Notes: a model not told the origin generated them from the sequence alone. 43,661 nucleotides of DNA from a virus (IMGVR_UViG_3300028591_000092:1-43661); one strand, 5' to 3'; shown: positions 6,038 through 34,359, numbered from the stretch's first letter. Numbers and translations: made by a program.

Positions 6038-6256
6038 ATGAAAAATTTCTTTACTAAAATTATAAGATTTATTAAGTACAAACAATCATGCAATATTCAA
6101 TTAGATATATTATATGATTATATAGCTCAATTAGAGACATTATATAAATATACAAAGAGTAAAAAATATAAAACATCTCAAAGAGATTTACTTAATTTAA
6201 AAATGGCTGAAGTTAGATATAATATATATAATCATTTAAAGAATTTTGTATGTTAG
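6038..6256 (+). CDS. Hypothetical protein
   Basis: 72-aa ORF ending in TAG, overlapping the next ATG. Confidence 0.55.
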   Translation: MKNFFTKIIRFIKYKQSCNIQLDILYDYIAQLETLYKYTKSKKYKTSQRDLLNLKMAEVRYNIYNHLKNFVC

Positions 6257-7266
6257 GAACATGTAGTATTGGAATTCCTGCTCCTATTTATAGAGGAGAT
6301 AGGAATGTTTTAGATTTTATTTGTGATGCTTTATCAAAATCCGCTACATTAGAAAATGGAGATGTTGTAGGAATTACTGAATCATTAGTAGCTCGTTCTC
6401 AAAACAATTATTGTAATGTAGATGATATTGCTAAAAGTGTAAAATCTCTTTTCCCAACAACTTCTTCAATTTATTTATATGAACCTATTGCCAGCAGAAA
6501 TAGATTCAGTTTAATTTTAAGAGGTGTAGCTAGAGCATTTAAAGGTGTAAATGTTGTATGGCGCAATAATTTTGATGAAGTTGGAAATTATATTAGAGGA
6601 GAACATCCTTTTACTGGTTTAAATTATAGAGAATTTTATAAAGGTATATGTGAAGAAGAAGGTGCAACTTTTTCTTTGTTTACAGAAGTTCCTCCTTATA
6701 AAAATAATTATGTATTAGATTGTAGATGCCATCCAACAGAAAATGAGTTTGAACATACTTTAAAAGAAATTCTAAAAATTCCTGTTATTAGAGAAGATAA
6801 TACTCAGAGTGGATTTAATCCTGATTATGGTGTTCTTGGCTCTAATATTGCTGGACCAGAAAGACTTAAATTATTTCCGAGAAATGGTCAGGAATTTGTC
6901 TTACGACTGCAAGAAAAATTACAAAATTCATTTGGTGTTCATGTTGAATGTCTAATTTATGGAGATGGTTGTTTCAAAGATCCTGTAGGAGGTATATGGG
7001 AATTTGCCGATCCTGTAACATGCCCTGGAAGTACTATTTCTTGGGATTTAATCCCTTCTGAATTAAAATTAAAGTTGCTTGCTGATACTAAAACAGATGA
7101 TGAAATAATTTCTGCAATTAAATCTGCTCCACAGCAAGCTTTAGGAACAACACCAAGACGAGTTAATGACCTTTTAGCTAGTCTTATGGATCTTACTTCT
7201 GGATCTGGAGATAAAGGCACTCCTATAGTAGTTGTTAAAAATTATTTTACACATTTTACTAAATGA
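6250..7266 (+). CDS. CofE-like (F420-0:gamma-glutamyl ligase family) protein
   Basis: GDVVGITESLVARSQ N-terminus and GTTPRR...DLLASLMDLTSGSGDKGTPIVVV C-terminus, typical of bacterial CofE-like ligases. Confidence 0.82.
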   Translation: MLGTCSIGIPAPIYRGDRNVLDFICDALSKSATLENGDVVGITESLVARSQNNYCNVDDIAKSVKSLFPTTSSIYLYEPIASRNRFSLILRGVARAFKGVNVVWRNNFDEVGNYIRGEHPFTGLNYREFYKGICEEEGATFSLFTEVPPYKNNYVLDCRCHPTENEFEHTLKEILKIPVIREDNTQSGFNPDYGVLGSNIAGPERLKLFPRNGQEFVLRLQEKLQNSFGVHVECLIYGDGCFKDPVGGIWEFADPVTCPGSTISWDLIPSELKLKLLADTKTDDEIISAIKSAPQQALGTTPRRVNDLLASLMDLTSGSGDKGTPIVVVKNYFTHFTK

Positions 7267-7270
7267 TTTT

Positions 7271-8419
7271 ATGGGAAAATTAAAAATAATTGGTTATGAA
7301 TTAAGAGATATTGCAGTAATGCAAGCGCCTGTTTCATTTGCCAATCATCGTGGTGATGTTAATCCATTTATCAATGTATGTAATAGAGAAGTATATCCTA
7401 TTTTTGTTGCTCCAATGGCTTCGGTAACAGATCAAAATAATTATCATATTTGGATTGATAATAAATTAACTCCTGTAATTCCAAGAAGTATTCAAATTAG
7501 TGAATGTAATCCTAATGGATTAACTTTTGAGGAACGAATGGAAATTGCAAAAGAAACATTTGTTTCTATTTCACTTAACGAAGCTTTAAAAGATATTTAT
7601 GAGTGGGCAGTAACACAATTAAACTCTCCTAGTCCACAAGATTATCTTGGGAAAGATCCAGATGTTAAATACTACATTTGCATTGATATTGCTCATGGAA
7701 CATTAAGTGAAATGTATAGAGCAGCAAAAGGTCTTAAACAGTATTCTAATGTTGTTTTAATGGCTGGAAATGTTGCTACTCCTAATGCATATTCTTTCTA
7801 TGCTGATGCTGGAATTGATTGGATGCGTGTTTCAGTTGGTTCTGGAAGTCGTTGCACATCTGCTTGTAATGTTGCAGTTCATTATCCTATGGCATCTCTT
7901 CTTGATCAATTAAATGAAGAAAGAAAAGCATATGCTCATAGTCATAATGGAAATGCTCCAACTAAGATTATTGCTGATGGTGGTATTGGATGGTTTGATG
8001 ATATTCAAAAATCATTAGCCCTTGGGGCAGACGCAGTTATGTGCGGCAAAATTTTTGCAGAATGTGATGAGGCGTCTGATCCAATTTATTTTTCTAAAGA
8101 TCTCGAGCACGCTAAAAATAAAGATTGCCGAATTTATGGATCAGTTCCTATAGGATTAGGATGGAAACGTTTTCGTGATTATTATGGTATGAGTACTAAA
8201 CGAGCCCAAAAACAAACTGGAGGCTCTGGTAATAAAACTGCTGAAGGTATTGATTGTCCTGTTGAAGTTAAATATCCTGTATCAAAATGGACTGAAAATA
8301 TGGAATCATATCTTCGTAGTTGTATGACTTATACAAATTCACACAATATTAAAGAACTTCGAGAAAACTCACAAGTAATTATTCTTGGTGGTTCTGGAGA
8401 TGCTGCATATAGAAAATAA
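7271..8419 (+). CDS. GMP reductase / IMP dehydrogenase family protein
   Basis: APMASV, DIAHG, AGNVAT, VGSGSRCTS (catalytic Cys loop), IIADGGI, YYGMS, AEG. Confidence 0.88.
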   Translation: MGKLKIIGYELRDIAVMQAPVSFANHRGDVNPFINVCNREVYPIFVAPMASVTDQNNYHIWIDNKLTPVIPRSIQISECNPNGLTFEERMEIAKETFVSISLNEALKDIYEWAVTQLNSPSPQDYLGKDPDVKYYICIDIAHGTLSEMYRAAKGLKQYSNVVLMAGNVATPNAYSFYADAGIDWMRVSVGSGSRCTSACNVAVHYPMASLLDQLNEERKAYAHSHNGNAPTKIIADGGIGWFDDIQKSLALGADAVMCGKIFAECDEASDPIYFSKDLEHAKNKDCRIYGSVPIGLGWKRFRDYYGMSTKRAQKQTGGSGNKTAEGIDCPVEVKYPVSKWTENMESYLRSCMTYTNSHNIKELRENSQVIILGGSGDAAYRK

Positions 8420-9752: not shown

Positions 9753-9912
9753 AAGTTTGGTATTATGCCAAAAACTAAAAAACGATTTAATTGGGAAATT
9801 TATGATGAAAAGGGAACATTTTTAGATATTTTAACAATGACTCGTGATGAATCTAAAAATTATCAAAAAACGTTTCCTAAGTATAAATTACAAGAGATAG
9901 GATATACAGATA

Positions 9913-10203
9913 ATGACTGAAGAAACTTTTCATGGAGCTTTAGTACAGAAAAAAGAAGGAATGTATACAATATATGTTTTCCAAAAGGATAATGGTGAGT
10001 ATTTAATGTGTACAAAACTGCCAAATTGGGGGCCATATATAATTAATATAGGAGATTCTGGATTTTTTACTGTAGATTATGTAACTGCAGGAGAAGAGTA
10101 TTTTGACAGGTTGTCTGGAGAAACTGTTAAATATATGTTTTCTAACATATATTTCAAAGAGTTTATTAAAGATAAAGAACTAGTTAAAGAGATAAGATTA
10201 TGA
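9913..10203 (+). CDS. Hypothetical protein
   Basis: ORF track, operon context. Confidence 0.7.
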   Translation: MTEETFHGALVQKKEGMYTIYVFQKDNGEYLMCTKLPNWGPYIINIGDSGFFTVDYVTAGEEYFDRLSGETVKYMFSNIYFKEFIKDKELVKEIRL

Positions 10204-13564: not shown

Positions 13565-13963
13565 ATGGTAAAGATAATAAAAAGAATAGACGATTATTCT
13601 GAAGAATTTAAAGAATATTGTAAATTACATAGTTTTTCTTATGATTTATTTCATTGCATGTATAAATCTTGGGCTATATCAAAAAGAGAAAATGAATTAT
13701 TTTTCTTCATTTATAATACTGGAGAGGACAATATAGTAAAAGTTACTGGAACTGTTTATATAGACAATGAACGTCATACTTTAAAACCTAAAATATTATC
13801 TTTATTTGAAGCTTTTAATCAGATATTAACTCCAGATATTAAAGATTATATTGTTATACAATCAGCTATGGGAAATTATTATGTCTTAGCATATCATGAC
13901 AGAGGACATAATGTTTTCAAAATTTACAATGACAAGAACACAAAGACAACAACTAGCAATTGA
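13565..13963 (+). CDS. Hypothetical protein
   Basis: ORF track. Confidence 0.6.
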   Translation: MVKIIKRIDDYSEEFKEYCKLHSFSYDLFHCMYKSWAISKRENELFFFIYNTGEDNIVKVTGTVYIDNERHTLKPKILSLFEAFNQILTPDIKDYIVIQSAMGNYYVLAYHDRGHNVFKIYNDKNTKTTTSN

Positions 13964-15164
13964 GAGATGGAAACAAGCGAAATGCAGAGGAAGTATAGTT
14001 GCCGGCACAGGATTTGGCAAAACTAGAACTGCTCTTGATGCTATAGAAAGAGTTTTTGCAAAAAATCCAAATATTCCAGTTACAGTTGTTGTTCCTACAA
14101 AAGTTCTTAAAAATCAATGGGAAGAAGCAATTTTTAAACGAAATTTTGATTATCCTGTAAATGTATTAATAATTAATACAGCAGCAAAAAAACCATTTAA
14201 TTGTGTTTTTTTAATTATTGACGAATGTCAACATATATCTGCAGAAGGAATGAGTAAAGTGTTTAAAAATTGTTCGCCTACATTTATTTTAGGATTAACA
14301 GCTACGTACGAAAGATTAGATGGAAGAGAAAAACAAATATTAGATCATTACGCTCCTGTATGTGACGAGATTACTATTAATGAAGCTTTATCTAATGGAT
14401 GGGTTGCCCCATATGTAGAATATAAAGTTTTATTAGATGTAGATCTAAAAGAGTATGATAATGCTAATCAGCTTTTTCTTAAATGTTTTAGCTTCTTTAA
14501 TTTTGATTGGGATTTAGCAATGACTGTTGCTACTAATGTTTTTAAAGCGCAACAATATGCAAAACATATTAATTGTACATTAAAAGAAGTTCAATCTTGT
14601 GCTTATGGCTTTATTAAATCCTTAAAAACAAGAAAATCTTTTATTGCTAATCATCCTAAAAAGTTAGAAATAGCAAAAAAGATTATAGAAGCACGCCAAC
14701 ATTCTAAAATAATTACTTTTAATGGTAGTATAAAACAATGTGAGGCTTATGATATGGGGTATGTATTACATTCTGGAAATACTAAGAAAAAGAATCAAAT
14801 GACTGTTGAAGAATTTTCGTTATGTAAAGAAGGGGCATTGCATACTTCAAAAATGGCTGATGAAGGACTTGATATTCAAGGACTAAATGTAGCAATTATA
14901 ACTGGATTTAATTCTTCTAAAATTTCTAAACGACAACGAATCGGGCGCTGTATTAGATTTGAACCAGGAAAAACTGCTGAAATATTTACATTAGTTTTAA
15001 AAGGAACTGTTGAAGAAAAATGGTATTCTAAATCTGGAGAAAGTCTCGAATATATCGAGATTAATGAACAAGAGTTAGATAGCGTATTACAAGGAATACC
15101 GCTAAAAAATAAAAGAAAGATTTTACAAGAAACAACAACATTTAGTAATATGTTACGATTCTAA
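13896..15164 (+). CDS. Superfamily 2 helicase (ResIII/UvsW-like)
   Basis: GTGFGKT, DECQH, GLTAT, EGLD, QRIGRCIR. The start may be slightly downstream. Confidence 0.92.
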   Translation: MTEDIMFSKFTMTRTQRQQLAIERWKQAKCRGSIVAGTGFGKTRTALDAIERVFAKNPNIPVTVVVPTKVLKNQWEEAIFKRNFDYPVNVLIINTAAKKPFNCVFLIIDECQHISAEGMSKVFKNCSPTFILGLTATYERLDGREKQILDHYAPVCDEITINEALSNGWVAPYVEYKVLLDVDLKEYDNANQLFLKCFSFFNFDWDLAMTVATNVFKAQQYAKHINCTLKEVQSCAYGFIKSLKTRKSFIANHPKKLEIAKKIIEARQHSKIITFNGSIKQCEAYDMGYVLHSGNTKKKNQMTVEEFSLCKEGALHTSKMADEGLDIQGLNVAIITGFNSSKISKRQRIGRCIRFEPGKTAEIFTLVLKGTVEEKWYSKSGESLEYIEINEQELDSVLQGIPLKNKRKILQETTTFSNMLRF

Positions 15165-15838: not shown

Positions 15839-17177
15839 TTGTTGATAGTTTATTTCAAAGTATTGAAAAAGGCCGAGAAGGGTTAAATAAAGGGTTATCT
15901 ACAGGATTGCCTAAATTTGATTCTGTTACATATGGTGTTCAAAGAAAATGGTTAAATGTAATAGCTGGAGACAGTGGTAGTGTTAATAATACATATAAAT
16001 ACATATCAAATATTTATCTAGATAGAAAATATGATAGATATTTATATTACTGCCGTCTATATGAGTAATTGTATAGATTATTACAGGGCAAAAACGGCGA
16101 AGACTGAGATGTTAATGTCGTGCTAACTAATTAAATTACGAAAGGTTAATTAGTAGTGTAGAGCGTAGAGAGTGAATAAATATAATCTCTCCAAGAGTGT
16201 CCTGCTCCTATTAATAGGATGAATACGTACGCCGAACTAGTAAGAATTAAATTACTAGAGGTAAGGATAAAAAGCCTTACGATAACAATTTGAGTGGCAA
16301 ATCCAGCTATATGCTTTATACTCAAGTATTTAGTCCTTTTCAACAGTATATGAAAGATAAAACTATAGATATTCATTTCCTATTATTTTCATTTGAGATG
16401 AGTGCTGAAGTTTTATTAGCTAAACTTTTATCTACTTATGTATATGAAGAATTTAATCAGGTGATTTCATATGATGAAATTCTTTCTTTATCTACTAAAT
16501 TAACAGAAGAACATTACAAATATTTACTTGCTTCTAAAGAATGGTTATCTGAATTTGAAAGTAAATGTGAAATTATTGATAAACCTGTTACTTCAGGAGG
16601 ATTATATGCTATTTGTAAAGAGTGGTCTAGAAAATTTGGTAATTATAAAGAACTAGGGCAAACTGGAGAATATACAAAAGAAGAATATATTCCAAAAAAT
16701 GATAGACAATATTTAATTGTGTGTGTTGATCATATTAAATTATTATCTACATCTCCAGGAAATACATCTAAACAAGAAATTGATAAAGCTTGTGATTATT
16801 TAATTCATTTTAGAAATAAATGTGGATTTACTATTAATATTGTTCAACAATTAAATAGAAACTTTAAATCCATGGAAAGAAGACAAAATGGATTTCAATT
16901 ATTACAACTAGATGATTTATCAGATTCTTCTGGTCCTGCGCAAGCTGCTGAAACTGTAATTGGAATTTTTCATCCTTACAGAGAAAAGATGGCAAAATGT
17001 GAAGGATATGATGTGAGACAATTAGGAGACAGAATAAGAATTTGCCAAATTCTAAAACATAGATTTGGAATGGCCGATAAATCTGTTGGTGTTACATTCT
17101 TTGGTGAAAATTCTGTTTGGAGAGAACTTCCACTTCCATCAGAAATAAATGACTATGAAAAGTTTAAAAGTTTATAA
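15835..17177 (+). CDS. dnaB: DnaB-like replicative helicase, join(15835..15978,16293..17177), 342 aa
   Basis: Splicing restores Walker A AGDSG/SGKSS; also GLSTG, FSFEMS, VDHI, QQLNR and DLSDS motifs. Confidence 0.9.
15979..16292 (+). ncRNA. Group I self-splicing intron (314 nt, no ORF) in dnaB
   Basis: Exon ends in U and intron ends in G. P1 GGT|AGT pairs with ACTGCC (16049-16054) with U-G at the splice site; P3 CAGGGCA/TGTCCTG; P7 GCGTA/TACGC. Confidence 0.88.
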
Positions 17178-17225: not shown

Positions 17226-17978
17226 ATGGGATTACTTCCTACAACAAAATCTGTTAAGAAAACAGATGATCCAAGAAATTTAATTATATTTTCACTTCCA
17301 AAAACTGGTAAAACAAGTTCAATAGCTCAACTTCCAAATTGTCTTATAGTTGATCTTGAAAATGGTAGTGATTATGTTTCTGGTTATATTGTAAAAGCAA
17401 ATACTTGGATGGATTTAAGAGACATTGCAAAAGAGTTATGTTCTACTGAACATAAATTTAAATTTGTTGCATTAGACACTTTAACAGCTCTTGAAGAAAT
17501 TGCACAAGATCTTGCTTGTAAACTATATCAGAATACTCCAATGGGAAAATCTTGGGATTATAAAAATCCTACTGATATTTTAAAATTACCTAGTGGTGGT
17601 GGTTATTTATATTTAAGAGAAGCAATGCAAACTATTATTGGCTGGTTTGAAAAAACAGGTCTTAATTTGATTTTAGTTTGTCATGTGAAAGATAAGCTTA
17701 TTACTGATTCTGCTTCTGAAGAAATGACTGTTAAAGCTATTGATTTAAGTGGTAAAATTGGTAATATTCTTTCAGCAAAATCTGATGGCATAGGATATGC
17801 TTTTCGTAATACAGAAGAAAATAAAGTATATTTGAATTTTGGTGCAAATACTTCTATTATTTGTAGTGCTAGACCACCACATTTGAATGGAAAAACTATT
17901 CTTTTATCTGAAATGGATAAGGATGGGAATATTATTACACATTGGGATAATATTTATCCAAGTTTAAAAAATGCTTAA
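17226..17978 (+). CDS. AAA_24 / Sak4-like ATPase (recombination)
   Basis: PKTGKTS, VDLENGS, ALDTLT, LVCHVK. Confidence 0.82.
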   Translation: MGLLPTTKSVKKTDDPRNLIIFSLPKTGKTSSIAQLPNCLIVDLENGSDYVSGYIVKANTWMDLRDIAKELCSTEHKFKFVALDTLTALEEIAQDLACKLYQNTPMGKSWDYKNPTDILKLPSGGGYLYLREAMQTIIGWFEKTGLNLILVCHVKDKLITDSASEEMTVKAIDLSGKIGNILSAKSDGIGYAFRNTEENKVYLNFGANTSIICSARPPHLNGKTILLSEMDKDGNIITHWDNIYPSLKNA

Positions 17979-18348
17979 AATAGAAAATAATAAACTAATT
18001 TTATCTCCTGAATTAGTTAATTTATTACAAGCTACTCCAGGAGATAAAATTATAATTGAATATTTAACAGAGGACAATAAAATAACTCCTGTAATTCTTA
18101 AAAGTGATAGAGGGAATGTCTTAAGTAACTCTAATACCATATCTTTTAGAGGAAAGCAAAAAGAATCTCTATTACAATTTGGAACTGAATTTCAAGAGGT
18201 ATTAAAAGAAAGTAATATTTATCTCCTTGGGAATAAAGGAACTATTATTTATACTCCTGTTAAATCTATTATTAAGGACTCTTTAGATAAATCTATAATT
18301 TTAGATACAAATTATAATATACAAAAATTTGAAACGTATGAATTATAG
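17971..18348 (+). CDS. Hypothetical protein
   Basis: ORF track; ends in TAG inside the start region of the next gene. Confidence 0.65.
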   Translation: MLKIENNKLILSPELVNLLQATPGDKIIIEYLTEDNKITPVILKSDRGNVLSNSNTISFRGKQKESLLQFGTEFQEVLKESNIYLLGNKGTIIYTPVKSIIKDSLDKSIILDTNYNIQKFETYEL

Positions 18349-18994
18349 TTTTGATGAAACTGCTGGTAATAGCCAAAACAGTGCTCGTAAACTTTTTGAT
18401 GGAAATGCAATTTATGATGTAACATTTGATGGGTGTGAAGCTCGTGATATTCAAGGAGTTCAAGATCCCACAAAAGTATTTCATGTTTTAGATATTAAAT
18501 TTTCTAATCCTACTGGATATTATACACATACAATTTTTGAACCTAATCCTGAGGACGCTACAGATCGCCAAGGACCTTTTGGACCACAGCCTTCTAATGT
18601 AAAAGCAATGATGTTGTTATTTAAGCATCTTATTGATGCTGTTAATCCTACATTAGGTCAAGCTATTGATAAAAAGGAAAAGAATCTTAACACCACAAGT
18701 TGGGATGCTCTTCGTCAATTAATGGTACAGGCAACTGAGCCTGGAAAGGGAACTTCAACAAAGATTAAACTGTTTAAGAATAATAAAGGTGTTGCTACAT
18801 TCCCATTCTTTGCTACTTATACAAAAGATGGTAGATTAGGAATGCAAACTAACTTTATTGGTAATAATATATTCTTTACAAATAAGGAATTAGATCGTAT
18901 AGCAAAGTATACTGAAGCTAAGCCAACTGAAGTTGTTGATTCGTTTGGAACAACTGCAACTACAGTTCCTTCAGATTATTCTTTTGATATCTAA
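18338..18994 (+). CDS. Putative single-stranded DNA-binding protein
   Basis: Lies between the Sak4-like gene and primase; acidic/aromatic C-terminus (SDYSFDI). Confidence 0.55.
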   Translation: MNYSFDETAGNSQNSARKLFDGNAIYDVTFDGCEARDIQGVQDPTKVFHVLDIKFSNPTGYYTHTIFEPNPEDATDRQGPFGPQPSNVKAMMLLFKHLIDAVNPTLGQAIDKKEKNLNTTSWDALRQLMVQATEPGKGTSTKIKLFKNNKGVATFPFFATYTKDGRLGMQTNFIGNNIFFTNKELDRIAKYTEAKPTEVVDSFGTTATTVPSDYSFDI

Positions 18995-25583: not shown

Positions 25584-28500
25584 ATGAAAGTAGTTAAAAG
25601 AGATGGAAAAATAGTTGATTTCCAACCTGAAAAAATAAAGAAAGCAATTGAAAATTGTTTTCAACAGATAGAAACAAATCATCTAGCTTTTGAAGTAGAA
25701 GAAATTGTTGTAAATGAATTAAATTCTTGGCAAAGAGACGCCGTTACAGTAGAAGAAATTCAAGATCTTGCTGAAGATGTTTTAATGAGTCTTGATGAAT
25801 ATGAAGCAGCTAAAGCTTTCATTCTTTATAGAGAAAGACATAAAACAATTCGAGACTATGTTCAAAATAAAATCGATTTCATTTCTAAATATAAGAAAGC
25901 TTCTAACACCGCTAATGCTACTGTTGATGATAATTCTAATGTTAGTAATCGGAATGTTGCTGTAATTAACGCTGAAATTCACAAACCTGATAATATTGAA
26001 ATTAATCGAGGGATGGTAATGCATAAGCTAAAAGAATTGTATCCTGATTTTGATAATAAACAATATATTCGGGATCTTGAAAGTCATATAATTTATAAAC
26101 ACGATGAGAGTTCTTTCTCTGGTGCTATTGCTCCTTATTGTTGTTCTATATCAATGTATCCTTTCTTAACAAGTGGTATAGAAGGTATTGGAGGATTGTC
26201 TGCTGCTCCTAAGAATATTGATTCTTTCTGCGGTATGTATGTAAATCTTATATTTGCTACAGCATCACAGTTTGCTGGTGCAGTTGCCACTTCTGAGTTT
26301 CTTTTGTACTTTGATTACTTCGCAAGAAAAGAGTGGGGAAATAATTATTATACCCATTCTGATGAAGTAGTTACTAATAGTCTTGTCTGCAACAGAGAGA
26401 AGACTATTAAGAAACAAATTCATCAGTATTTTCAACAGGTTATTTACAGTATAAATCAACCTGCCGCAGCAAGAGGAATGCAAAGTGCTTTTGTAAACTT
26501 CTCGTATTTCGATAAACCATTTTTCGAAGGAATGTTTGGTAATTTCTATTTTCCTGATGGAACACAACCAGACTGGGACTCGTTAAATTGGATTCAAAAA
26601 GAATTCATGATGTGGTTTAATAATGAAAGATTGCGCTGCTTATTAACATTTCCTGTAGAATCTTTTGCTCTTGTTTATAAAGATGGAAAATTTGTAGATC
26701 AAGAATCTGCAGATTTTGTAGCAGAAGAATATGCAAGAGGACATAGTTTCTTTACATATATTAGCGATACTGTAGACAGTCTTTCGTCATGTTGTCGTTT
26801 AAAAAATAAAGTTCAAACTAAAGAATTTAATTTTACAAATGGAAACATAGGAGTCGAGACAGGTTCTAAATCAGTTATTACTCTTAACCTAAATAGGATT
26901 GTACAAGACAGTTACAACGAGTGGATCATGAAATTCTCTAATGGAGCCCCTGATGAACTAAAAGAGGCATTCAAAAAAGACTATAATATGCTTACTACTC
27001 ATCTCAAACCAATCCTTGAACGAGTTTATAAATATCATACAGCTTATAATGAACTCTTATGGGACATGTACGATTCTAATCTTCTTCCTGTATATAAAGC
27101 TGGATTTATTGATTTAAATAAACAATATCTTACAATTGGAATTAATGGTTTAAATCAAGCTGCCGAATTCTTAGGAATTAGATGTTCTGATAATAAAGAA
27201 TATGAAGAATTTTGTCAATTTATATTTGGAATTATTAAACAAAGCAACGAAAACAGTAAATGTAAATTTAATGGGCATCAGTTGACTTTTAATACCGAAT
27301 GTGTTCCAGCTGAAAGTCTTGCTATTAAAAATTACAATTGGGATAAAGCAGATAATTACTGGGTTCCCTCTGATACTAATCTTTATGCATCTTATATCTA
27401 TAAACCAAATGATCCTACTACATCTGTATTGGAAAAAATTAGAATGCACGGATCTAGATTCATAGGCGATTTTTTGGATGGTAGACATTTCTGCCTGTTA
27501 TACCTTTTCGCTTAATCAAGCGGGTATTATTTATTTAATAATGCTAACGGTGGAGCCTAAACTGGAAACAGCATGGTAATACCGTGGGAAAATAATTATA
27601 TTATGTTAATTTATAAAATTACAAATCTTATCAACAGTAAGGTATACATCGGCCTTACAACTCTCTCTTTAAATAAACGATGGATATCTCATAAAGCTAA
27701 TTGTAATAGAGGTAACTAGAAGCATCTATATAAAGCTATGAGAAAATATGGTATTGAAAATTTCATCATAGAAGAAATAGACACTACCAACGATATTGTA
27801 AAACTTGGAGAATTAGAAAGGTACTACATTAAACTTTATGATTCTCAAAACCCAGATAAAGGGTATAACAATACAGCAGGAGGAGAAAAAAATCAATTAG
27901 ATGCCAATCCTCGTGCTACGCTAACTGTTGATGAAGTAATTCAAATAAGAGAAATATATTCTAGTTGTGAAATTACTTGTAAACAATGTTGGTAGATATA
28001 TAAATCAAAAATATCTTTCTCTGCATTCTAGAAAATATGGGAAGGAACAACATGGAAAGATATTAACTTTGAAGTTTATACAGAAGAAAACAAAAGTTGG
28101 CATCAAAAGCAAACGCAATTATGTGGAGAGAATAATCCGTTTGCATTATATAAAGATTTGGAAGTTTTAGAAATAAGAAAATACTACGTAAATCATTCGC
28201 TTACTGAGTGCTATAAAAAGTTTGGCTAGAACTGTAAATCAAAAGCTTCTTTTAGAAACTTAATTGATAGAGGGTATCAAACTATTCCAAGGTACTTAAA
28301 GAATGAGAAAAAGTGGATTTTCAAAGGAAAAGAAATTAACATAAATGATTATAAACCTGTATCGACTATCTCCGAATCGGGAGAGTAGGTTTGCTATTGA
28401 TACGCAAATCGAAATGGGTATTGTGGTATTAATACCACTAAGATATAGTCAGTGCGTATAGAAATATACGATTGCACGGGAAGTGCAGCTCATATAAATC

Positions 28501-28769
28501 TTTCTGAACACTTGTCTAAGAAACAATATCAGATGCTTCTTGAATATGCTGCTAAAGAAGGGTGCCAATACTTCACATTTAATATTCCTAACTGTGAGTG
28601 TGATGATTGTGGTTATATAGCAAAACAACCATTTACAGTATGTCCTAAATGTGGCAGTACACATGTAAGCCTATGGGATCGTATTATTGGTTATCTTACC
28701 AAGATTAAGAATTGGTCTGAAGGAAGACAGATAGAACAAAAAACTAGAATTTATTCAAAAGAAGTATGA
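25584..28769 (+). CDS. nrdD: Anaerobic ribonucleotide reductase, join(25584..27482,28479..28769), 729 aa
   Basis: ATP cone VVKRDG; IYKHD; PYCC; SSCCRL. Splicing restores LDG/GSAAHINL. CxxC...CxxC and glycyl-radical motif RIIGYL follow. Confidence 0.95.
27483..28478 (+). mobile_element. Group I intron (996 nt) in nrdD carrying a homing endonuclease
   Basis: P1 GGT|AGA-CATT-TCTGCC with U-G; R element GTATCGACTA; S element AAGATATAGTC; P9 CGTATA-GAAA-TATACG; terminal G. Confidence 0.93.
27603..28400 (+). CDS. GIY-YIG homing endonuclease, TAG-recoded (265 aa)
   Basis: MLIYKITN...VYIGLT...RW..H...E..YI...GYN. One frame with TAG at 27717, 27993, 28029, 28227, 28386 and no TAA/TGA until 28398. Confidence 0.85.
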
Positions 28770-33953: not shown

Positions 33954-34136
33954 ATGAAAAATTGGAATTGGAAACAATGGACTGCTTTTGGTATAATTTG
34001 TGCTATTGTAATTGCTGCAGTAGTATGTCATTTAGTTCAACCTGCAGTTTCTTATGCATGGCTTGAAGTAGTATCTCTTTGTACCGCAGCTTTAGGTGGT
34101 GTTGCTGGATATTTTATAGGCAAAAATAAGAAGTAA
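33954..34136 (+). CDS. Small membrane protein, two predicted TM helices
   Basis: Two hydrophobic stretches and a basic tail GKNKK. Confidence 0.75.
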   Translation: MKNWNWKQWTAFGIICAIVIAAVVCHLVQPAVSYAWLEVVSLCTAALGGVAGYFIGKNKK

Positions 34137-34137
34137 T

Positions 34138-34359
34138 ATGAATCAAGAAGAATTACAAAGTTTGGTAACTAGATTATTAGACAGTAAAGCAATAACATCA
34201 AAAGAAGCAATTGAACTTTTGAAATTATCTTTACCAGAAAAAACTAATACTATCTATGTGCCAAGTTATATACCTAGTTATTGGTCGTGGGGATATCCAT
34301 ATTTTACTACTACGCACAATACATCCTCATTTACAAATGACACAAGTACACATAATTAA
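34138..34359 (+). CDS. Hypothetical protein
   Basis: ORF track. Confidence 0.6.
   Translation: MNQEELQSLVTRLLDSKAITSKEAIELLKLSLPEKTNTIYVPSYIPSYWSWGYPYFTTTHNTSSFTNDTSTHN

Follow-up and report, generated by a model that had tools for sequence, protein, structure and literature searches.

In the TGA-recoded Agate phages, the endonuclease of a group I intron lying in an early gene is preferentially recoded, and its in-frame stop codons, the authors propose, should block production of the enzyme until late in infection (Borges et al., bioRxiv 10.1101/2021.08.26.457843). The Zeta and Delta groups of crAss-like phages, with genomes of 145-192 kb, carry many group I introns and read TAG as glutamine or TGA as tryptophan in their late genes; reassigned stop codons occur in their intron and intein open reading frames (ORFs), and in one PolB example, the gene and its intron ORFs both contain TGA (Yutin et al. 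2021, PMC7886860). Here we describe an ORF for a GIY-YIG homing endonuclease that contains several TAG codons and lies in a group I intron of the gene nrdD, within a viral sequence of 43,661 nucleotides (IMGVR_UViG_3300028591_000092:1-43661, hereafter the window). We think it likely that the ORF encodes a functional endonuclease in a mobile nrdD intron of a Zeta-like crAss phage, that it is written in the code of the late genes, and that the full enzyme is made only with amber suppression. I-TevI, the GIY-YIG enzyme of the T4 td intron, is made late, being transcribed from a late promoter and having its ribosome site masked by a hairpin in early RNA.

Homing Endonuclease ORF with In-Frame Amber Codons

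The endonuclease ORF lies on the plus strand at positions 27603-28400, 265 codons followed by TGA, probably in the P6 loop of the intron. The original prediction, made from the sequence alone, had counted five in-frame TAG codons and no TAA, TGA or frameshift over this length, and our translation agrees: TAG stands at codons 39, 131, 143, 209 and 262, and the frame is otherwise unbroken up to the terminal TGA at 28398-28400. The product matches the Pfam family GIY-YIG (PF01541; E 8.2e-10, 39.3 bits against a cut-off of 22.6) and PHROG 7168, homing endonuclease (E 2.7e-30), and over its first 90 residues it can be aligned with 1MK0 and 1LN0, structures of the I-TevI catalytic domain. Residues Y4, Y15, R26, H30, E72 and N89 occupy the catalytic positions (Y6, Y17, R27, H31, E75 and N90 in I-TevI), which are invariant across 41 homologues; these residues and G17 are all kept, as are nearly all other invariant residues of the family. 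The two motifs that name the family had been placed on either side of the first TAG. This proved inaccurate, as GIY (codons 3-5) and YIG (codons 15-17) both precede TAG 39; what straddles this codon is the complete catalytic domain, with R26 and H30 before it and E72 and N89 after it. Translation in the standard code would halt at codon 39, leaving 38 residues.

Is the gene still alive? The nearest relative, in the locus L001, is 79% identical, with dN of 0.12, dS of about 2 and omega of about 0.06; omega for other endonuclease pairs ranges from 0.1 to 0.5. A dN/dS ratio near 1 had been named beforehand as evidence against the prediction, and the value found is far below it. The endonuclease is under purifying selection. 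These data bear on the view that the ORF is a decaying pseudogene, its TAG codons being nonsense mutations and the intron being kept by vertical descent. Such decay has precedents, since intron endonucleases often degenerate and T4 I-TevIII is annotated as defective, and three of the four TAGs internal to the ancestral reading frame fall in columns that are non-conserved or hold E, K or Q. Nonsense mutation, however, should have left other traces. Single-base changes from the sense codons of the ORF lead to TAA by 79 routes, to TGA by 39 and to TAG by 44, so that 73% of routes give TAA or TGA and 27% give TAG. Random decay in AT-rich DNA had been expected to give mainly TAA and indels; the probability that four nonsense changes would all be TAG by chance is about 0.005, without counting the absence of indels. 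Neither TAA, TGA nor a frameshift occurs in the 261 codons, the set of catalytic residues is complete and few of the invariant ones are lost, omega is low (about 0.06-0.3), TAG is just as dense as in essential late genes, and the same pattern recurs in the related loci L018, L022 and Lak-A2. We regard decay as very improbable, and the ORF is, as far as its sequence can tell, an intact and functional I-TevI-like GIY-YIG homing endonuclease that would require TAG read-through. Intron-less nrdD alleles, candidate targets for such an enzyme, occur (as in the crAss-like phage cr116_1), and the same intron site is filled in eight diverse phages.

The density of TAG sets the endonuclease apart from its surroundings. 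As had been predicted, the flanking plus-strand genes are free of it: the 33 plus-strand genes of the window hold no internal TAG in 8,742 codons, compared with four in the 261 codons of the endonuclease (1.53%; Fisher p = 7e-7). Across 17 large late genes of the same phage there are 282 in 18,587 codons (1.52%), from which the endonuclease does not differ (p = 0.8). The neighbouring early genes being wholly TAG-free, the endonuclease must be under a different regime. Five other plus-strand ORFs containing TAG (6038-6442, 7166-8419, 9844-10203, 13851-15164 and 34012-34359) were considered and rejected; they merely lengthen standard ORFs, by read-through or upstream, and have no family matches. 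The endonuclease is the only convincing case of a TAG-coded gene on the plus strand of the window.

Host Gene and Group I Intron

The host gene consists of two exons on the plus strand. Exon 1 (25584-27482) has 633 codons with no in-frame TAG and matches Pfam NRDD (3.6e-59) and ATP-cone (2.5e-22); exon 2 (28479-28769) has 96 codons, likewise without TAG, holds the Zn ribbon and the C-terminal RIIGY loop, and matches NRDD at 5e-21. The first ends in RFIGDFLDG and the second begins with GSAAHINL, placing the intron between Gly633 and Gly634. A tblastn match with the intron-less NrdD of cr116_1 breaks off at FLDG, and removal of the intron restores FLDG|GSAAHINL as in that protein (FLDGGAACHINL / ...YIGDFLDGGAACHINL); from this continuity of frame the intron is taken to be 27483-28478, 996 nt on the plus strand with a core like that of T4 td. 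The splice sites read GGT|AGAC and CACG|GGA, with U just ahead of the 5' splice site and G closing the intron. The core strings CGACTATC, GAGTAGG and GATATAGTC occur both in its non-coding parts and in the intron of T4 td.

To obtain the secondary structure, we aligned eight homologous introns that occupy one and the same position in nrdD (those of the window, L001, L002, L017, L018, L022, L023 and L024) and counted their base pairs; P8 was read by eye only, and the helix names are provisional. Every helix tested is at least 92% paired, and P3, P4, P7, P7.1, P7.2 and P9 are 100% paired. Compensatory changes, at one to five positions each, occur in P3, P4, P7.1, P7.2, P9 and two further hairpins; P7 is invariant. 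By analogy with GGGU/GCCU of T4 td, the trinucleotide GCC at 27493-27495 is the probable internal guide that would pair with the exon end GGU to form P1, and it is conserved in all eight introns. The 5' strand of P3, ATACC at 27500-27504, pairs with 28417-28421 (40 of 40 cells paired, with compensatory change at two of five positions). The P4-P5 domain at 27547-27585 (ACGGTG ... TACCGT) is paired in 48 of 48 cells, contains a compensatory change from T-A to G-C, and resembles TAAACGGGG...TCCCGTG of td. The 3' side of the catalytic core extends over 28364-28450 and comprises P7 (28364-69/28445-50), P7.1 (28370-83), P7.2 (28388-94/28404-10), the 3' strand of P3 (28417-21) and P8 (28423-38). It is followed by the P9 hairpin and the terminal G (28452-28478), with compensatory changes at five of nine positions in P9. 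The order P7-P7.1-P7.2-P3'-P8-P7'-P9 is typical of subgroup IA introns such as td, and we assign the element as a group I intron that is predicted to be self-splicing. Between the P3 5' strand and P4 lie two hairpins supported by covariation (27509-27522 and 27524-27544), an unusual layout for a group I intron.

The end of the ORF and the core of the intron share the same nucleotides. That the two overlap had been noticed earlier, and the structure makes the overlap precise: P7, P7.1 and the beginning of P7.2 fall within the final 12 codons of the endonuclease. These codons contain no synonymous difference from L001 or L002, although synonymous sites elsewhere in the gene are near saturation, a conservation that reflects a constraint on the RNA.

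The TAG codons themselves differ in what they reveal. TAG 39 (27717-27719) lies in a variable loop of the catalytic domain, and TAG 209 (28227-28229) in a variable column. At TAG 131 (27993-27995) the homologues carry E, K or Q. TAG 143 (28029-28031) corresponds to Gln in 35 of 40 protein homologues; since such counts might be circular if database entries had been translated with code 15, they were repeated on DNA, where the codon is CAA or CAG in 8 of 10 homologues. The fifth, TAG 262 (28386-28388), was suspected of being the ancestral stop, a suspicion that the comparison upholds. Homologous proteins end in STISESGE immediately before it, and related introns have a stop codon at the same place, TAA in six of the eight compared and TAG in two. 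P7.2 opens with the third base of this codon, and the pair that this base forms covaries, being A-T in six introns and G-C in two. Read-through here would append QVCY before the TGA at 28398-28400.

Two Codes in One Genome

The window makes up the first 43.7 kb of one phage contig of 171,661 bp, with a G+C content of 31.8%, whose large terminase (TerL) matches those of crAss-like phages at 26-41% identity. The size of the genome, its load of introns and its code fit the Zeta group of these phages (Yutin et al., PMC7886860). If TAG is taken as sense, the minus strand resolves between 34.8 and about 131 kb into long ORFs, each holding 1-37 TAG codons; the portal gene has 12, the TerL gene 11 and the endolysin gene five. 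The standard code suffices to read the plus-strand block, which encodes DNA polymerase, helicase, primase, ligase, exonucleases and NrdD. ARAGORN finds a tRNA with anticodon CUA, a cloverleaf and a CCA end at c125087-125165, and the phage is predicted to decode TAG as sense in its late genes through this tRNA(CUA) of its own. The same program reports a tRNA-like gene at 154186-154259 of the genome with a two-base anticodon loop call (tRNA-???, 'tg'). The late block is not uniform, in that a gene for a GroEL-like chaperonin (genome 120198-121688) has no TAG at all and several other late ORFs are free of it too.

Excluding the two fragments of the endonuclease, about 11 early ORFs terminate at TAG, several with a back-up stop 1-4 codons further on, and TAG therefore still appears to work as a stop in the early block. 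Genes in which a TAG is followed by such a TAA or TGA lie at 17971-18354 of the window and at 133968-134576, 137344-138132 and 161745-162575 of the genome; the back-up stops look as if they limit the damage once TAG is later read through.

What does TAG mean in this phage? A comparison of the late proteins of the window with all fetched loci, intended to map TAG columns, gave no matches, and the mapping was carried out with TerL and 80 viral loci, with columns counted over 49 TerL homologues without in-frame stops. The column of TAG204 holds Gln in 49 of 49. Taken over all TerL columns, Gln shows the most consistent enrichment of any residue, about 5-fold in either direction, compared with about 2- to 2.7-fold for Glu. 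In the endonuclease, the original prediction had proposed a search for Gln at the TAG columns, and the outcome was mixed: column 143 is mostly Gln, but 39 and 209 are variable and 131 is E, K or Q. Column 98, which is TAG in the copies of L018 and L022, is CAA or CAG in nine of nine others. It might be argued that TAG is read as a different residue such as Glu or Lys, which would leave the endonuclease just as dependent on suppression. The TerL column of TAG233 is Glu in all 49 homologues and that of TAG613, an E/Q column, is Glu in 36 of 49, endonuclease codon 131 aligns with E or K more often than with Q, and nothing visible in the tRNA(CUA) points to descent from tRNA-Gln. Against these observations stand the greater enrichment of Gln, the conserved columns that are Gln (TerL 204, endonuclease 98 and 143), and the assignment of TAG to Gln in crAss-like phages by Yutin et al. 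(PMC7886860). We judge a residue other than Gln to be improbable; Gln is most likely the meaning of TAG, in line with that assignment.

Related Introns and Endonucleases

Homologues of the endonuclease were compared together with the nrdD exons that surround them, and copies of this one lineage fall into three kinds: some have in-frame TAG, some have in-frame TGA, and some have no in-frame stop. The window copy has four internal TAGs (and one at the stop) in 261 codons, and the exons none in 729. In L018 there is a single TAG, at the conserved Gln98, with none in the exons, and a TerL homologue with 23 TAG is found in the same record. That record (IMGVR_UViG_3300045988_113697, 282 kb) has two TerL homologues, with 23 and no in-frame TAG, and may be a chimeric or doubled assembly. 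In the Lak-like L022, which TAG-rich late genes adjoin, three intron ORFs (one HNH and two GIY-YIG) have four, five and four TAGs, with none in the tiling exon segments. The intron ORFs of Lak-A2 have nine in 345 and six in 300 codons, and its nrdD exons one in about 725. The endonucleases of L002-L005 have one TAG, which could be a nonsense mutation, and their exons none. In-frame TGA is found in the copies of L001 (six, at Trp columns) and L023 (six), and their exons have seven and two, respectively. The copies of L017 and L024 have no in-frame stops.

L001 was considered as a parallel case of a recoded ORF in a standard-code gene and rejected because its phage writes TGA for Trp in nrdD also; within L001:1-3653, nrdD seems to hold a further insertion between 1176 and 1436. 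Lak-like nrdD genes (L022:1-6500 and L178, which is Lak-A2 MK250019.1 373701-382366) are split by three or four introns, each bearing a TAG-rich endonuclease ORF of the HNH+HTH or GIY-YIG type. L022 has the same intron as the window at 633/634, so crAss-like and Lak-like phages have exchanged it. The claim that TAG restricts homing to recoded phages is weakened by these findings. The lineage is present in stop-free copies (L017, L024), in phages that read TGA as Trp (L001, L023) and in TAG phages, and its spread over at least two recodings and stop-free copies makes it doubtful that homing was strictly confined to a single code in the course of evolution.

Several relatives have a spacer of 60-100 nt between the intron core and the ATG of the endonuclease (L002:3780-3868, L017:9930-10000, L023:4150-4213 and L024:9915-9982). 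It contains TAAATTTG or TAACTTTG, a promoter-like motif of the form TAnnTTTG, presumably the Bacteroidetes -7 promoter element, and its presence suggests that the endonuclease is transcribed separately in these relatives. Both spacer and motif are lacking upstream of the endonuclease in the window (27591-27602) and in L001, and the window copy may therefore depend on the nrdD transcript.

Possible Role of the Amber Codons

With the standard code in force, ribosomes would stop at codon 39 and yield an inactive peptide of 38 residues, and the full enzyme would appear only once amber suppression was active, which by the published model means late. Such a gate could benefit the phage by sparing its own DNA, or splicing, early in infection. 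The reading of the genetic code as a timing switch, with the TAGs selected as its gate, is plausible.

Must the TAGs have been selected? They could instead be passive marks without a regulatory role, if the endonuclease matters or is transcribed only late and its CAA and CAG codons have drifted neutrally to TAG up to the level of the late genes. I-TevI of T4 is itself expressed late. The density of TAG and its share of Gln codons equal the late-gene average and do not exceed it, the TAnnTTTG motif just upstream of the endonuclease in several relatives suggests separate transcription, and the positions of TAG differ among relatives as repeated neutral gains would predict (39, 131, 143 and 209 in the window; 24 in L002; 98 in L018; 24, 98, 166 and 190 in L022). 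An average share and scattered positions fit drift. The window copy, however, has neither the upstream spacer nor the motif and so probably depends on the nrdD transcript, and every other plus-strand gene of the window is TAG-free under the same mutational pressure, so that something sets the endonuclease apart. Even under drift the consequence would be the same, with no full-length protein before suppression. We rate passive marking as a possible account, though clearly the less probable one.

Several observations count against the functional, suppression-dependent endonuclease that we favor. The Gln codons of the endonuclease are eight CAA, no CAG and five TAG; the internal share of TAG, 4 of 12, compared with 32% in late genes, shows that the gene is not preferentially recoded, and since it is average rather than elevated, it fits neutral accumulation as well as selection. 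Among the internal TAGs only 143 is diagnostic for Gln, two others (39 and 209) lying in variable columns and the remaining one (131) in an E/K/Q column, and the uniform Glu at TerL TAG233 points elsewhere. The tRNA(CUA) shows no resemblance to phage tRNA-Gln genes in a similarity comparison, which is uninformative on its identity. That synthesis is confined to the late period we infer from the need of the full-length product for suppression. Finally, the Rfam model Intron_gpI (RF00028) finds no match in 27300-28700 at E <= 10. This last negative is weak because the T4 td control with its ORF also falls below the gathering score (40.3 against 50 bits), and the 783-nt ORF probably blocks the model. 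In window 15900-16350, Intron_gpI likewise gave no match at E <= 10.

A further idea takes the overlap of ORF and core as its starting point: the amber codons might toggle the intron RNA between two incompatible jobs, splicing and serving as endonuclease mRNA. The last 12 codons being strands of P7, P7.1 and P7.2, a ribosome that finished the ORF would have to unwind the core. Early in infection, with translation ending at codon 39, ribosomes would get no closer to the core than about 650 nt and the nrdD pre-mRNA could fold and splice. Late in infection, with the suppressor tRNA present, ribosomes would enter the core and the endonuclease would be made at the cost of splicing, when NrdD would no longer be needed. 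The window copy, without the promoter-like spacer of its relatives, may rely on this gate alone. We offer this toggle as a speculation, and an unlikely one.

If the endonuclease is functional and gated by suppression, two codes are used within one transcription unit, the exons being readable in the standard code and the selfish gene of the intron only in the late code. The locus would also provide a compact test system for the idea of recoding as a translational timer, combining four amber codons with a nuclease that can be assayed, a target site that is known and splicing as a read-out.

Comparison with Known Systems

The closest precedent is that of the Agate phages, for which the timing idea has already been published (Borges et al., bioRxiv 10.1101/2021.08.26.457843). 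In both cases the intron-borne endonuclease has in-frame recoded stops, the gene around it is early and written in the standard code, and the phage is a partially recoded one from the gut. The Agate phages use TGA for Trp and their endonuclease family is statistically over-recoded, whereas the window has TAG, probably for Gln, at average late-gene density in a Zeta-like crAss phage. Added here are the identity of the host gene, the anatomy of the intron, a TAG version, which extends the published TGA observation to TAG recoding in crAss-like and Lak-like phages, the nrdD site 633/634 common to both of these groups, and a stop codon embedded in P7.2. In the PolB example of Yutin et al. (PMC7886860), the host gene is recoded too; in the window, L018, L022 and Lak-A2, by contrast, the intron ORF uses the recoded stop and the exons avoid it (one in 725 codons in Lak-A2).

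Among T4 introns, that of nrdD (sunY) with I-TevII has the same host gene family and endonuclease superfamily. A common homing site was considered and rejected, as exon 1 of T4 ends near residue 180 and the window intron stands at 633/634, before GGSAAHINL. The td intron with I-TevI is nearer in structure. The catalytic domain of the window endonuclease aligns to 1MK0 and 1LN0 with all catalytic residues, and the introns have in common the core strings, the helix order P7-P7.1-P7.2-P3'-P8-P7', and an ORF looped out between the P4-P6 region and P7. They differ in host gene (td versus nrdD), in the end of the window ORF, which runs into P7, P7.1 and P7.2, and in the two hairpins between the P3 5' strand and P4. 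T4 uses the standard code and times its endonuclease by transcription and RNA structure, whereas the phage described here would do so by the code itself.

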